NCBI RefSeq assembly: GCF_013167455.1
Contig: NZ_CP038328.1
From: Escherichia coli O157:H7
GTDB taxonomy: Bacteria > Pseudomonadota > Gammaproteobacteria > Enterobacterales > Enterobacteriaceae
DNA: 64,000 nt
Strand: one strand, 5' to 3'
Shown: positions 24,001 through 30,000 of the stretch, piece by piece
Position numbering within the stretch: position 1 is the stretch's first letter
Layout of the letters: each line of letters starts with the position of its first letter
Made by a program: the position numbers

Positions 24001-27000
24001 TGAACACCCGCTGCAGGTCCGTATCACACAGGACATCGCAGAACAGCGTCACATCCGCTTCCAGGTTACGGCGGGTTTTCGCCACCACCGACAGGGTATC
24101 GTCATCCTCTCCATCACCATTGAGCACTTCCTGCCACAGATACCAGGCCTCTGCCGAAGGCTCCCGCAGCACCACGCTGACATTACCCCATTCCGGCACC
24201 TTCACCGTTTTATGACGAAACCCTGACAGTCTGGCCAGCGCCAGCGTTTTCAGATCCTTTTTCATGATGACCCATCCCCTTATCCGGCGGCAGCGCTCAC
24301 TGTCACGGTGCATTCAACAGACGTCACACTCTGTGCTTTCTCTGCCGAATCGGTCACCACACAGGTATATTTCCCCGCATCAGCGGACTGCGCACCTGGC
24401 TTACTGAAGGTGTCTGTCGTCTGCCCGTCAACCGGCTGACCATCCTTCTTCCAGGCGTATTTATACGGCGGCGTTCCCCCGTTGGCACTGACTGACATTG
24501 TCAGCAGCGCACCGGTATTCACGGTAAGTGTCTTATCCAGATTTTTCACAAACGCCAGCGGTACCACAAAGGACACCGGTTTGCCTTTCAGACGCAGTGA
24601 GAACGTTGCAGCCACCACGCCGTTGGTACCGGATGACCAGGTGTGCTGGCGCACTTCCGCCAGGAATTTAAAGCCCTTACCGGACGGAAACAGCACCTTA
24701 AACGCATACAACGCGTCATTGTCATAGGCATCACGCAGGGCGTTCTGGGCCTGATTCAGATAAAAATTGCCCGACATGGAAATCTCAGACGACGCCCCCA
24801 GACCATTGATGTTCTCCTGCTCTGTGGAGCAGAGCGTGGTCACATCAATATCCTGTTTCTGCCCGGCGGTGAACTGCACTTCCTTGATGGTGCAGTCCAG
24901 GCGCAGATATTCCGCCTTATCCATAGTTTCAGCAGTCGCCGGGGCAGATGAAATCATCACCTGCGTCAGCTGTGAGCGTTCATACAAAGCAGACATTCTG
25001 CCTCCTGATAATAAAAAACCCGCACGCGGCGGGGTATGGGTTTTGTAGAAAAAAGAAAAAGTCACACCGTGACCTGAAACTCCAGGGTTGCACGGTAACA
25101 GCGGTTTTCCGGAATATAGTCCTGCATTTCACTGACGGATCCCGGGGCCAGCAGCATTATGGCTTCACGGGCGTCCTGACGTATCTGACGCGCCTGCGTC
25201 ACAGTCCCGGCATAAACGTCTATCTGCACCGACACTGAGGACTCCGCCTGCCCGCCCATCACGTCCGCTGACACCGATGAAATCAGGCTGAAAACCACCC
25301 ACGGAAGCGCCACCGACGGCCTGCCATCCAGCAGGGGGACCACATACGGGTACACCTGCCCGCCGGCAAGATGCGCCAGATGAGGATACAAATCCGCCTC
25401 CGTCATCGTCTCAGTACCTCATCAATGGCCCGGTTCATCCGCGCAATCGCCACCTGTGCCGCCTGTTCACTGCGCACATCAAATGCCGGGCGCACAAACG
25501 GGTGCGGTGGCATATTCACGGTCCCCATTTCCACAAACCGCCAGTAGAAAGCATTGCGCGGGTTATCCGCCTTCATGGTGTTATCGCTGTTACCGGTGTC
25601 CGGATTAACACCCCGGATATGCACACCGGATTCCATCCCGCCATCGCGGGAGCACCGGGAAAGGACCACCACATTGCGGCGAAGTTTTCCCCTGCGTACC
25701 GGTGCCCGTGACACCACTTCTTCTTTCAGCACATTCGCACCCGCACGGGTTGCCTCACGCAGCACCCGGTTATTTTCCGCACCACTCAGAAGCTGCAAAT
25801 CGCGGCTGATGTCCTCCAGCCCCGAAAAATCCAGCAGGGTTTCGATCATTTTTCCCCTCCCAGCCGACAGAGAATTTCCAGACGCCCGCCGGTTGCATCC
25901 GGAACCGGGACCCCGACGACATTCAGGACATGGTCACGCCAGGGACCACTCAGCACATGAAGTCGTGACGCCGCCGTGATTTCACGACCAGACTGACCGC
26001 GTACCCAGATGCGGATTTCCGCCTGCGCCATTTCCGCACCGGACTGCATCCGCTCCCGGCTGCTCCTGCCCCGGATATCCGCATGAATTTTCCCGCATGA
26101 CACCCATTCTTCCGTCATTTCTCCGGCAGCATTACGGGTTAACACCGGGTTCAGAACACTGATCATCTGTGTCAGACGACCTGCAGATATTGCCATTCCC
26201 CCTCCTCATAACACCGTCGGACAACGCAAATCGTAAATCAGCACGGAAACAGAAAACGGCAGTTCCCCCTGCACGAGGTCTTCCCGCTCAGCAAGATCCG
26301 GATTCCGGTACAGCATCCCGGTCAGTCGCATGGCAGCCCCCTTCATCCGGGTTAATGCCTCACCCGGGATCAGCTCACCGTCCTCACTAATCACTTTATC
26401 CCGGCTGCCCTGGATGTAGGCCAGCAGCACGGCGGTAGCCTGACGAACCTTGTCCATCAGCATCTCATCATCCGCGTCATGGTCAACACGCAGATGTGCC
26501 TTGATTTCTTCCAGTGTCAGTAATGCTGTCACTTTCCACCTCCTGCATCCCGCCCACGTTTTGCAGCCAGAGTCCAGCCTGATGAATGAGCTTCTCCGGG
26601 CTTATCACCGGTCATACTGTTGCAGTGCCACAACGAGCCCCCCACGTCACCGTATCGCCGGGGTGGTAAGTTTCGCCGATTCTGAACACACCACGGTAGA
26701 GCATCACCGGCAGGGAAAATGTTTTTTCCGTACGCTGGCCACTGCTCTGCCGGACCACCACAGAGAACGACCGTTCACCCGTCATGCTGACGTCAATATC
26801 CGCCACCCCGTCAACCAGGCATTCCCATCCCCGCATCCCGTACGTTTTTTCATACGCCCGCCAGAGTCCACCCTGGTGTGTGGCATACGAGCCCCGGGGA
26901 AAGGATTTTTGATCGTCAATGGCGGGGAGTATTTCCAGTGCCGTGGCATCACGCCCGTCCTGCGGAGCCGGCAGGGCACTCACCGCCTCCAGAACCGCCT

Positions 27001-30000
27001 TCTGCAGAACATCCGGATCGTAGTCACGACCATCACGCGGAACAGGAATATGGCTTACCGCCTCCTTCACCATCTGTTCAAGCATCGGATGCACATCATC
27101 CGGAGTGATACTTTTACCGTCTGCCGGTACCGGTATTTTCGCGACCGCATCATTCACCGCCTTCTGCAGAACATCCGGATCGTAGTCACGACCATCACGC
27201 GGAACAGGAATATGGCTTACCGCCTCCTTCACCATCTGTTCAAGCATCGGATGCACATCATCCGGAGTGATACTTTTACCGTCTGCCGGTACCGGTATTT
27301 TCGCGACCGCATCATTCACCGCCTTCTGCAGAACATCCGGATCGTAGTCACGACCGTCGCGCGGAACAGGAATATGGCTCACTGCCTCTTTCACCATCTG
27401 CTCAAGCATCGGACGCACATCATCCGGGGTGATACTTTTGCCGTCTGCCGGTACCGGAATATTCGCAACCGCATCATTCACCGCCTTCTGCAGAACATCC
27501 GGATCGTAGTCACGACCGTCGCGCGGAACAGGAATATGGCTCACTGCCTCTTTCACCATCTGCTCAAGCATCGGACGCACATCATCACCCGTCACGCACT
27601 TCTGTAATACCACAGACTGAGAAGCCAGTTTTTCTTCAAACGTTTGTGCCTGCGCGGCTATTTTCTCCTCAAATGTGCGCTGTAAATCCGCCAGCACTGT
27701 GGAAAATTCTTCTCCCAGTGCACGAATAATGGACAGTTCCCGTTCCGTCATTTTCTCAGTATCCCCCCTGAACATCGCTTTCACCGCATCATGCTCTGTT
27801 TCACTGATTGCCTTATTACCGTCAGATGCGCCGTCAGGCAGCTGTGATGAAACTGTTTTCCCGGCAGACGCGAACGGATCCTCACGGGCATCACGACGGG
27901 ACAGCGCCTCCAGACTGTAGTTCTGCTGCTGAAGATACAGTGCATCACCGCCGGCCAGGGGCGGCAGGTTCTCCCGTTTACGGGCCTCATTGGGCGTGAG
28001 AAGCGTATTTTTCACCGCATCCCCCAGCGTTTTCATGCGCCGCTCACTGTCCATTCTCAGCAGCGTGGTGACATCAAATTCTGTACTCTCGTTTTCCCCC
28101 GTTTCCAGCGCCTCATCCAGTAACAGTTCAATGGACTCAATCAGCGTCTGCAGGCACTGGGAATAATACTGCTGCTCCAGCGCCTCCACGTTGTCACTGG
28201 AAGGCGGTTGTCCCACGCCAATCTTGTAGGCCGGGACACGGAACACCGAACAGACAATTTCAGCGGTCATCTTCAGTTGTTCCACCGTCTGCGCATCCAC
28301 CGGTGAAAACGTCGTGGGGTTGTATTTTGCCCCGTTGCTCAGAATGGCCGTTTTCCCCGCATTTTCGCCTGTATACCCGCTGTCCCAGTTGCTCTTCAGT
28401 TTTTTCGCATTTTCTTCCGTAATACTGCCGGGGATCTCAATCACCCCGGACGGCCTGCCGCCATTTCTGAAAAAAGACGTCGAATTTTCCTGAATATGAT
28501 GCCCCTGCGTGGCCGCCAGCCCGGCGGCATACACCGGCGGCAATCCTATAAGCGGATGAAAAAAACAGTTAAACCGGTCGTGGATCACTTCCCGGGCAGG
28601 CACCGTCACCGCCTCCGTGATCCCGCAGTTCCGGTCCGGCGTGATGCGGTAGAACACCTCGCCGTCATCCGCCACCAGAGGTTCAACCCGGCTCCAGTCC
28701 AGAATACGCAGTTCTTTGATCTGCCCCCGGGCATTACGGATTTTCAGCACCACCGTATTGCCATGACGCAGTTTGGCGTTCAGCCACAGTTCAAAAAACT
28801 GGATGCGGTTCTGCTGGGCGTTGGGACGACGACAGAGGCGGGCAATATCCCCCCGGCGCGTTTCCCTGCGTATCCCATGCGCATCCGTCTGCATAAGACG
28901 CAGCCGCATTTTGGCGATATCCTGGGATATCAGCGAAATACATGCAAACACCGCATGAAAGGAGAGGACGGCTTCAGGATCGGCTTTCACGCCCTGCTGC
29001 CAGGCGCCGGAAAAGGGCTCAGCCACCGCCTGAAACAGGCTGGTCCAGCCCGCCTCTCTTACGTCACGTCCTGATTTCTGGTTTTTTCGGGTTCGCCGTA
29101 AAAGGTTCCACATTCGCCATGCTCCGCATCACGTTTCTTTTTCTGACCTGCCGGACGTCGCACCGTGATGTACTCCGCCTTTCCCAGGCGAACCAGCACC
29201 TCCGCACACGGCTGTGCCACATCACGGATATCCCCGGCCCGGGCATCATGCGTGCCCTGCAGATATCGGATCTTTGCCATAACCTGTTACGGGAGGCGCA
29301 CGCCTCCCGTCCTCCTTATCAGACTCAGCCGCCGGACGCACTGCCGTAGTTCACTCCGGTGATCACCGCCACCGCCGCAGTACGGCGACGACGCCAGTTG
29401 ATCCAGCGCTCCGCACGGATGGCCACGCTGCCTGTCTGGAACATGGAAACCAGCTCCACCGGGGACGGCGTGGTACTGTCGCCGCCCGGCTCAGACTGCA
29501 TTTCCAGTGATGCCTCGCGGGACATATCCACTGCCACGCCGCCGTCATCCGCCAGATAAATATCCGGGGCATTCACCAGCACCAGCTGGTCACCCACGTA
29601 CTGGGAGACAATCACCGGCAGCCCCTGGAAGGAGCCACCCAGCAGGGTCATGTCCGGGTATTCCTTCTGACCCAGCGCATTTTTACGCATGGACAGTGCC
29701 AGGGCATTGGTGCTGGACATCAGCCAGACCGCACCGGTGGGCTGCAGGTTTGCTGCCACAAACTGTCCAAACGCAGCCTCGGCATCCGCATCCGGGTTAC
29801 CGGTTGATGCCGTGCCCTTCACATCATGGGTGATGGACGCCGGGGAGACATCTGCCACTGCGGCTTTTTTCGGGTCCACAAAGTCTGTATCCAGACGCGC
29901 CACCACCGCTTCCGCCAGCGCATTACGGACCAGTGCATCAGCAGCCGGACTGGAAAAACGGATCAATTCTTCCGTCAGTACCGCAATGGCCGACACCTTC

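Follow-up and report, generated by a model that had tools for sequence, protein, structure and literature searches.

The window, a stretch of 64,000 nucleotides from Escherichia coli O157:H7, carries in a prophage an open reading frame of 833 aa on the minus strand (26612..29113). Very probably this ORF consists of two adjoining phage head genes that have become fused, the first encoding a portal protein and the second a protein that we call X. The HK97-type portal is confined to residues 1-454, and residues 455 onward are gene X. A Pfam scan matched PF04860 to aa 54-382 of the ORF (E 9e-81), and the TIGR01537 portal_HK97 model gave 349 bits, above its cut-off of 112. Residues 1 to about 454 match HK97-family portals across the family's entire length. 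Portals of this family stop at about 400-470 aa, whereas the window ORF runs some 380 residues further. The original prediction had described a portal of twice the normal length; the portal proper is of ordinary size and ends at about aa 454.

The surrounding genes make up a head module of HK97-like type, comprising TerS/TerL, a fusion of S78 protease and capsid, a connector of the gp6-like kind and a head-closure protein. Within this module, gene X lies directly downstream of the PF04860 portal gene and upstream of the connector gene (Table 1), an arrangement that recurs in relatives. A small ORF lies between the capsid and portal genes, and the related loci L007, L018 and L020-L023 also have a small ORF in the equivalent position. 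A plus-strand ORF at 26450..27607 was considered as a gene and rejected, being a stop-free mirror of the tandem repeat.

Table 1. Features of the portal-X locus (positions in the window)
Feature	Position	Strand	Basis
Gene for a fused prohead protease (S78) and major capsid protein, upstream in the same conserved module	29325..31262	-	
Small conserved ORF, 73 aa, between capsid and portal genes	29059..29280	-	
Portal protein proper, HK97 family, aa 1 to about 454	27752..29113	-	PF04860, TIGR01537, C-terminus in relatives
G6 homopolymer tract, fusion point	27763..27768	-	Alignment with phage 1717, with a gap of 1 nt in the G run
Native start codon (ATG) of X, the M in ...K-M-TERELSIIRALGEEF	27749..27751	-	Stand-alone homologues
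X N-terminal segment, predicted single long helix of ~50 residues, probable coiled coil	27587..27751	-	AF2 models
162-bp (54-aa) tandem repeat, variable-length stalk of X	26994..27586	-	Tandem Repeats Finder, second repeat search
X C-terminal beta domain, predicted tandem CBM5/12-like fold, in frame to premature stop	26612..26993	-	
Second G tract, G6 here and G7 in intact alleles	26638..26643	-	Alignment to YYZ-2008, sequence, RefSeq "frameshifted" note
Out-of-frame X remainder, conserved last 35 aa (SLWHCNSMTGDKPGEAHSSGWTLAAKRGRDAGGGK and stop)	26529..26636	-	Conserved motif in X alignments
Head-tail connector (gp6-like) gene, next in module	26206..26532	-	

Portal and X in related phages

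In all nine contexts examined outside the fused E. coli alleles (Klebsiella, the Pseudomonas phages PAJU2 and IME307, a Rhizobium phage, E. coli A34 and four metagenomic relatives), the extension is not part of the portal ORF; instead there are two ORFs, with the start of X overlapping the portal stop. The portals of these relatives have 403-476 aa and are followed by the separate gene, and the two genes are also separate in most Stx-phage records. In Klebsiella L007 and in the E. coli alleles with a five-G tract (G5) at the junction, the overlap has the form ATGA, and translation of X is coupled to that of the portal. The portal ends in MFRGILRK in the G5 alleles and in MLRGLLAK in Klebsiella. 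Stand-alone homologues of X begin with MNERELS(I/L)I.ALGEEF exactly at the internal methionine of the window ORF.

The X family comprises 8917 sequence clusters and is mostly stand-alone in architecture, a portal domain occurring in 2 of the 150 top representatives. An independent portal-X fusion, of 1237 aa, was found in two data sources. PHROG 1289 gives end-to-end matches to stand-alone X proteins of Klebsiella (E 1e-161), E. coli, Pseudomonas and Rhizobium, and the window ORF matches positions 1-833 of the 859 in PHROG 2271, which represents the fused form. PHROG 1289 is labeled "portal protein"; this label seems to have been inherited from fused or mis-split records, since its members contain no portal domain. 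The newer Pfam family PF28083 is listed for many of these proteins in a precomputed table. A search of NCBIfam with X returned only noise.

The two-gene form is thus probably the original state, with a portal of about 454 aa and an X of the PHROG 1289 family starting at the ATG that overlaps the portal stop, and judging from these comparisons it is probably also the intact one. Pseudogene calls at this locus are therefore probably mistaken in many Stx and other lambdoid prophages. In RefSeq, as annotated by PGAP, the polarity is the opposite, with a fused 861-aa ORF treated as the intact protein and the G5 alleles as frameshifted.

The G tract at the portal-X junction

Alleles with G5 at the junction encode portal and X as two genes, and those with G6 encode the fusion. 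The G5 tract, 11 nt upstream of the X ATG, gained one G in the lineage of the window. This insertion abolished the portal stop codon and so accounts for the additional residues on the window ORF: the portal frame, which would have ended ...MFRG-ILRK, now reads through into X as ...MFRG-DTEK-MTERELS.... The original prediction had proposed a check for a hidden frameshift separating portal and extension. There is none inside the ORF, which by comparison with its relatives exists only through the 1-nt insertion. The accompanying refuting condition, that a sequencing error had joined the extension to the portal as a gene of its own, holds as far as the separate gene is concerned, as the relatives demonstrate. 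It does not hold for the error, because at least 1000 contigs carry the fused 861-aa product.

Each of the two alleles is genuine and widespread in E. coli. Among 82 junction loci, 43 have G5, 38 have G6 and one has G4, so that a tract-length polymorphism switching the reading frame is present. Phage records contain a 121-nt junction in 10 cases and a 120-nt junction in about 81. The split portal of 454 aa likewise occurs on 1000 contigs or more, and 146 contigs carry an X of 407 aa. Among 1072 matching records of complete E. coli genomes, at least 760 have the G6 junction and at least 343 have one particular G5 haplotype. X is under purifying selection whether fused or split (pN/pS 0.15-0.32 across both kinds of allele), although recombination between prophages may blur the pN/pS comparison. 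Given that the fused allele is intact, and in view of its diversity and high frequency, the G6 step alone cannot be regarded as damage.

The fused G6 form could itself be the functional, selected state in E. coli, with G5 the older one. The product would be a 95-kDa portal-X protein, which would put twelve X chains on the portal's inner (crown) side as an internal extension like the portal barrel of P22. We consider this a genuine possibility, although on balance we do not favor it. The fused ORF is intact on those contigs as well as in ST131, O43 and O157 lineages, pN/pS in fused alleles is 0.15-0.29 with the same rate of disruption as in split ones, a second portal-X fusion arose independently, and the helix of about 50 residues that opens X directly follows the portal C-terminus. 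The fused allele is also carried by 2851 and phi330, both of which were obtained as virions (for phi330, PMC12502783), although the phi330 record has other frameshifts. The prevalence of the fusion is inflated by clonal sampling of O157 and ST131, however, and fusions remain rare among the family representatives. A C-terminal domain resembling fiber tips and carbohydrate-binding modules would be odd in a protein sealed inside the capsid, and the ATG of X would still allow free X to be produced from the fused allele.

The coexistence of G4, G5 and G6 alleles would also be expected if the tract were a switch, acting by phase variation or by ribosomal or transcriptional slippage, such that one genotype yields both free and portal-tethered X in a ratio that matters for the virion. 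The nearby variants CTGAG and CTGCG each occur with both G5 and G6, a G5 allele (L053) is identical to G6 alleles across 570 flanking nt, and both states are found within single genomes, in different prophages. A glycyl-tRNA reading GGG might re-pair one base back in the run. We nevertheless think such a switch quite improbable. A run of 5-6 nt is short for a contingency locus, where high-frequency switching within a strain usually goes with tracts of at least 7 nt. The junctions of Klebsiella, PAJU2, IME307 and Rhizobium lack a G run. The haplotype pattern is explained equally well by recombination; as to recurrent slippage or recombination, the flanking haplotypes are no more than suggestive. 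No hairpin was found 5-9 nt downstream of the tract, the only predicted one starting about 35 nt downstream, too distant for a classical stimulator and with a modest z of -2.5. Programmed -1 frameshifting was rejected, as the stimulator is badly placed and the slippery site is not conserved. That the tract is a maintained switch between free X and X tethered to all twelve portal subunits, with both states functional and selected, is likewise unlikely.

The predicted repeat stalk and terminal domain of X

The in-frame tandem repeats that first drew attention to the ORF are real. Tandem Repeats Finder reported 3.7 copies with 97% matches and a score of 1053, which cannot be due to chance, and a second repeat search found three copies of 281 nt, each displaced by 162 nt from the next. 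The repeat unit thus measures 162 bp or 54 aa, and not the approximately 168 bp or 56 aa previously given. Full units occupy aa 510-563, 564-617 and 618-671 of the minus-strand frame, with a diverged partial fourth unit from aa 672. Each 54-aa unit is made of two diverged 27-aa half-units, each consisting of an amphipathic helix followed by IPxPxDGxD. Recent expansion of the array, which its near-identity had suggested, is not borne out. The full units differ at 5-12 of 162 nt (3-7%, mostly at synonymous sites) and by only 1-2 aa, and the 27-aa module is also present in the Pseudomonas and Klebsiella homologues. The anticipated copy-number variation does exist: in E. coli prophages X forms a ladder of 245, 299, 353, 407, 461 and 515 aa in 54-aa steps, with spans of 729 to 1377 nt in increments of 162. 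Each change in copy number is by a single 54-aa unit; unequal recombination or slippage during replication, acting between units that are nearly identical, is presumably the cause.

G homopolymers and 162-bp repeats are classic sites of error, and short-read assemblies often break at this locus, leaving many "partial" entries. We nevertheless regard an assembly or sequencing artefact, whether of the array or of the long ORF, as extremely improbable. The exact 833-aa product occurs on 398 independent contigs, many O157:H7 genomes that were finished independently have the gene at 100% identity, and the alleles of differing copy number make a regular series in which the frames are intact.

The window X has the hallmarks of its family, namely an N-terminal helix, helix plus PxPxDG repeats and a C-terminal domain. 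AF2 models place a helix at X residues 3-53 (pLDDT 89-96), followed by a repeat stalk of alternating 13-17-residue helices and 12-residue linkers (pLDDT 50-70). The last ~130 residues are predicted to form small beta modules (pLDDT 95-98) that superpose on CBM5/12 domains and phage fiber tips. The predicted fold of this domain resembles CBM5/12, although the scores are weak: Foldseek E-values were at least 5e-3, the best single-sequence Pfam E was 3.6e-4, and six of nine X members matched CBM5/12 at E <= 0.1. Profile matches in the PDB were to All3316 and a chitinase (E 1e-3 to 4e-2). X appears to have no solved homologue, because a two-profile PDB search gave only designed helical repeats, All3316 and chitinase CBMs.

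In the family, X ends in ...GD.VT.GGS.W...W.LA.KRGRDG. The window ORF lacks the conserved last 35 aa in frame, because compared with the intact allele of 861 aa its reading frame changes close to the 3' end: a G7 to G6 slip 11 codons before the ORF stop truncates the terminal domain. The stop of the out-of-frame remainder overlaps the start of the connector gene. Since this second homopolymer slip removes conserved residues, the window copy is a damaged allele in a defective O157:H7 prophage. RefSeq annotates a gene identical to it as a "frameshifted" pseudogene, in a defective nleL-carrying prophage.

Possible role of X and comparison with known systems

Neither variation in tandem repeats nor fusion at a homopolymer is out of the ordinary, but the family to which X belongs is both large and unstudied. 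The repeats belong to X, where the helix and PxPxDG units would form a stalk between the N-terminal helix and the C-terminal tandem CBM5/12-like domain. We infer that X sits at the portal vertex in low copy number, as an elongated accessory protein with a distal domain that may bind a glycan or a conserved virion partner, and that the phage tolerates, and possibly makes use of, an X tethered to the C-terminus of the portal. The proposal of a fused decoration or scaffolding-like module is retained in so far as a distinct module is fused; a scaffolding role seems unlikely, because the capsid protein has its own S78 protease and a coiled-coil segment. If the switch reading were true, X would be a new kind of component at the portal vertex, acting as an internal extension of the crown or as a fiber that binds glycans, in a widespread HK97-like head module with over 8900 sequence clusters.

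No description of an X protein was found in the literature on PAJU2, Stx-phage portals, Pankowvirus, or head fibers and carbohydrate binding. In the PAJU2 record, structural annotation in the region is given only for ORF003, ORF010 and ORF015, whereas ORF007, the homologue of X, is entered as hypothetical. The paper on phi330 reports mass spectrometry of virions, but its text and supplement give peptide coverage for the short-tailed phages only (PMC12502783).

Roughly one in five complete E. coli genomes has the locus annotated as a giant "portal protein" or a "frameshifted" pseudogene. Occurring in several prophages per genome, the 162-bp repeat breaks short-read assemblies, and the six-step length ladder could mislead or inform prophage typing. 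X is a conserved member of a very common head-gene module, which is found in Stx1 and Stx2c phages with long tails, among others. In X a stalk that varies in length is combined with a tip that is confidently predicted to be carbohydrate-binding-like, and the protein can be fused to the portal in particle-producing phages. Placing X in the virion would extend the parts list of the HK97-type head and neck.

Several known systems resemble X in part. Minor head proteins of the SPP1 gp7 and Mu gpF type (PF04233) are likewise encoded immediately downstream of the portal gene; they are bound to the portal in few copies, and in some cases their gene is fused with that of the portal. X has no sequence similarity to them and differs in its architecture of coiled coil, repeat stalk and beta domain, and its membership in the MuF/gp7 family was rejected, as Pfam scans of the ORF and of the X alignment gave no PF04233 (Phage_Mu_F) match. 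In solved portals the C-terminus points to the capsid interior, and the long X helix that directly follows it in the fused allele recalls the C-terminal helical barrel of P22-like portals. Like the variable-number tandem repeats of fibrous phage proteins, those of X are near-identical in-frame units with alleles differing by whole units, but X is encoded between the portal and connector genes and not among the tail genes. The C-terminal domain is predicted to superpose on the CBM5/12 domains of chitinases and chitin deacetylase and on the fiber tips of the Agrobacterium phages 7-7-1 and Milano and of cyanophage A-1(L), and shares with CBM5/12 and CBM-like fiber tips the motif Y..GD.VT.GGS.W...P...W. 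Unlike typical receptor-binding tips, it is highly conserved across phages whose hosts belong to different classes.

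Portal and X are separate genes of a conserved head module

The in-frame repeats reported in the original prediction are present in the 833-aa ORF, and their description was accurate except for the unit size, which is 162 bp (54 aa) and not 168 bp (56 aa). A second repeat search of the window bore out the 162-nt spacing. Three full units occupy aa 510-563, 564-617, and 618-671, and an incomplete, diverged one comes after them. Full units differ at 5-12 of 162 nucleotides yet at only 1-2 amino acids, and each is composed of two diverged 27-aa halves, a helix followed by IPxPxDGxD. 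On the opposite strand a 385-aa ORF (26450-27607, plus strand) with a repetitive, low-complexity translation spans the repeat; we rejected it as a gene, since this reading frame is only the stop-free mirror image of the repeats.

Features of the window and of the predicted X structure
Feature	Position	Strand	Basis
Long ORF, 833 aa	26612-29113	-	ORF call in window
Tandem repeat, period 162 bp, 3.7 copies	26994-27586	-	Tandem Repeats Finder, 97% matches, score 1053
G6 tract, fusion point	27763-27768	-	frame reads ...MFRGDTEKMTERELS..., joining portal and X
G6 tract where intact alleles have G7	26638-26643	-	one G fewer than in YYZ-2008 and the other intact alleles
Capsid gene, 645 aa (S78 prohead protease, coiled-coil segment, HK97-type capsid domain)	29325-31262	-	
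Type III effector gene nleL	about 14156-16504	-	
X N-terminal helix	residues 3-53 of X		AlphaFold2, pLDDT 89-96
X stalk, 13-17-residue helices alternating with 12-residue linkers			AlphaFold2, pLDDT 50-70, arrangement uncertain
X C-terminal all-beta domain			AlphaFold2, pLDDT 95-98

The ORF had been interpreted as a double-length portal with a fused extra module carrying variable repeats. The fused module stands, but the double-length portal does not, as the ORF arose when a homopolymer slip joined the portal gene to its neighbor, here called X. The portal-family match is restricted to aa 54-382 (PF04860, E 9e-81; also TIGR01537). A query of the ~400 C-terminal residues retrieved 1791 proteins; numerous members of this set, encoded by E. 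coli, Shigella, Klebsiella, Pantoea, and Raoultella, stand alone at 245-402 aa, and their N-terminus, MNERELS(I/L)I.ALGEEF, coincides exactly with the internal ...K-M-TERELSIIRALGEEF of the window. Klebsiella encodes a 452-aa portal and a 402-aa X separately, with an ATGA overlap, and X and the gp6-like head-tail connector gene overlap in a like manner. The connector start also overlaps the native X stop in both the window and phage YYZ-2008, and portal, X, and connector thus form an overlapping, presumably coupled chain. The connector start codon is GTG in the window (26530-26532) and ATG in YYZ-2008 (L001 8583-8585).

The order S78 protease-capsid fusion, small ORF, portal, X, connector is conserved in the Pseudomonas phages PAJU2 and IME307 and in four metagenomic contigs; in a Rhizobium phage and E. 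coli A34 it is kept for portal, X, and connector only. The protease-capsid fusion lies beside the portal-X pair in seven of nine other contexts; in the remaining two it was not seen or the sequence was cut short upstream. In one metagenomic relative (L022 6465-9901), glycosyltransferases, methyltransferases, and an FdtA-like enzyme are encoded directly after the connector, an unusual gene content inside a head-tail block.

Searched with an X profile, 1.84 billion representatives gave 8917 X-family clusters at E <= 0.001, with lengths of 123 to 1237 aa; a portal domain was present in only 2 of the best 150. Stand-alone X matches PHROG 1289, and the "portal protein" label of that group was apparently carried over from fused or split records. 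PHROG 2271 ("portal protein", 859 positions) covers the 833-aa ORF end to end, so the long form was already in the databases. Naming of the family is inconsistent: the 402-aa Klebsiella X, of identical architecture, is called "phage portal protein", "phage gp6-like head-tail connector protein", or "carbohydrate binding domain", and PF28083, a newer Pfam family, is listed for some of these proteins.

Single-base changes in poly-G tracts fuse portal to X and truncate the window copy

The suggested check for a hidden frameshift separating portal and extension was made against phage 1717: a single G has been gained at the junction, and in the contexts compared outside the fused E. coli alleles there are two genes. 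In the alignment the sole difference is CAGGGGGGAT in the window and CAGGGGGAT in 1717. With five Gs (G5) the portal frame ends in ...MFRGILRK*, its TGA overlapping the ATG of X. Because the Klebsiella junction is alike (...MLRGLLAK*, ATGA), we regard G5 as the ancestral, coupled arrangement.

Both states are common and real. Among 91 phage records the junction is 121 nt (G6) in 10 and 120 nt in about 81. In complete E. coli genomes, at least 760 of 1072 matching records are G6 and at least 343 carry one particular G5 haplotype; some genomes hold both. At least 1000 contigs carry the fused 861-aa product, and at least 1000 the split 454-aa portal; 82 parsed junctions, a sample ranked towards the query, comprised 43 G5, 38 G6, and one G4. 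We exclude an artefact as the origin of the repeat or the long ORF. The nearby variants CTGAG and CTGCG were each found with G5 and with G6, and across 570 flanking nucleotides one G5 allele does not differ from G6 alleles. At least one recent change of the tract follows, although recombination makes the number of changes impossible to count firmly. RefSeq/PGAP treats the fused 861-aa ORF (WP_000267294.1) as the intact portal and G5 two-gene alleles as "frameshifted" pseudogenes (L014 1716-4300, L017 1716-4138, L013 1716-4301). Judged by comparison with other genera, this polarity is probably wrong.

A slippage switch at the G tract is possible but improbable: a conserved slippery site was not found in the relatives' junctions compared, and the sole predicted hairpin lies ~35 nt downstream. 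The main rival reading is that fused portal-X is the selected functional state in E. coli. This tentative alternative fits most of the observations on portal-X. Fused alleles are carried by phage 2851 and by phi330 (PMC12502783), both obtained as virions. X is under purifying selection in fused and split alleles alike (pN/pS 0.15-0.29 and 0.24-0.32, respectively), and its disruption rates are similar in the two.

The window copy itself carries an extra frameshift inside a decaying prophage. Again poly-G length changed by one base, and the G7 to G6 change converts ...TWGGSLWHC... to ...TWGARCGTATV*. The displaced 3' frame runs to the connector start and codes for the 35 conserved residues of the C-terminus; since this frame is intact, the truncation is recent. 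RefSeq flags an identical gene as a frameshifted pseudogene. Mapping onto O157:H7 TX 265-1 places the window in a non-Stx lambdoid prophage adjoining potC, with nleL but no stx genes in the prophage; it looks defective because several genes are truncated or partial (the exonuclease and the region after tail protein L/K). The window gene shares 99.4% identity with the YYZ-2008 "portal" and matched 93 phage-collection records, mostly long-tailed Stx1a-, Stx2c-, or Stx2a-converting phages, those classified belonging to Pankowvirus. Of 5426 complete E. coli genomes, 1246 contain it, with 100% identity in many O157:H7 strains.

Structure and possible role of X

The X model was built with AlphaFold2 from an alignment of 127 sequences. 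X may be a low-copy portal-vertex protein matched to portal output through translational coupling, with a portal C-terminus that would tolerate its attachment. The repeats would set stalk length and the distal CBM-like domain could bind a glycan or a conserved partner. Portal C-termini point inwards in solved portals, and the fusions therefore imply that X lies on the portal crown, within the capsid; the fibre-tip-like C-terminal domain suggests instead a neck or head fibre outside. We consider the two locations about equally probable.

The repeat is modular and varies in copy number

The expected copy-number variation among related prophages was found. X-region spans among Stx phages are 729, 891, 1053, 1215, or 1377 nt, and intact X in E. 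coli prophage loci has 245, 299, 353, 407, 461, or 515 aa (54-aa steps), corresponding to one to six RDGRDYD motifs. A recent expansion, also proposed, was not borne out; Klebsiella, Raoultella, and Pantoea have 54-aa steps of their own. These steps, together with the shorter units of a metagenomic relative, thus mark the repeat as ancient, modular, and variable in length, and not as a recent peculiarity of this strain. Entries named "phage portal protein, partial" (150-290 aa) number in the hundreds and come from 0.5-2 kb contigs; short-read assembly evidently fails within the 162-bp repeat, which recurs in several prophages of a genome.

Neither repeat variation nor slip fusions are out of the ordinary; the moderate interest of the locus rests on the portal-fusion polymorphism and on the X family, which is widespread and unstudied. 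A second portal-X fusion, in frame, 1237 aa long, and of independent origin, occurs on metagenomic contigs from two data sources (L018/L019 5001-8714). It contains about 28 shorter units, each a helix plus PEPEPLPDI, and its stalk is far longer than that of the E. coli X.
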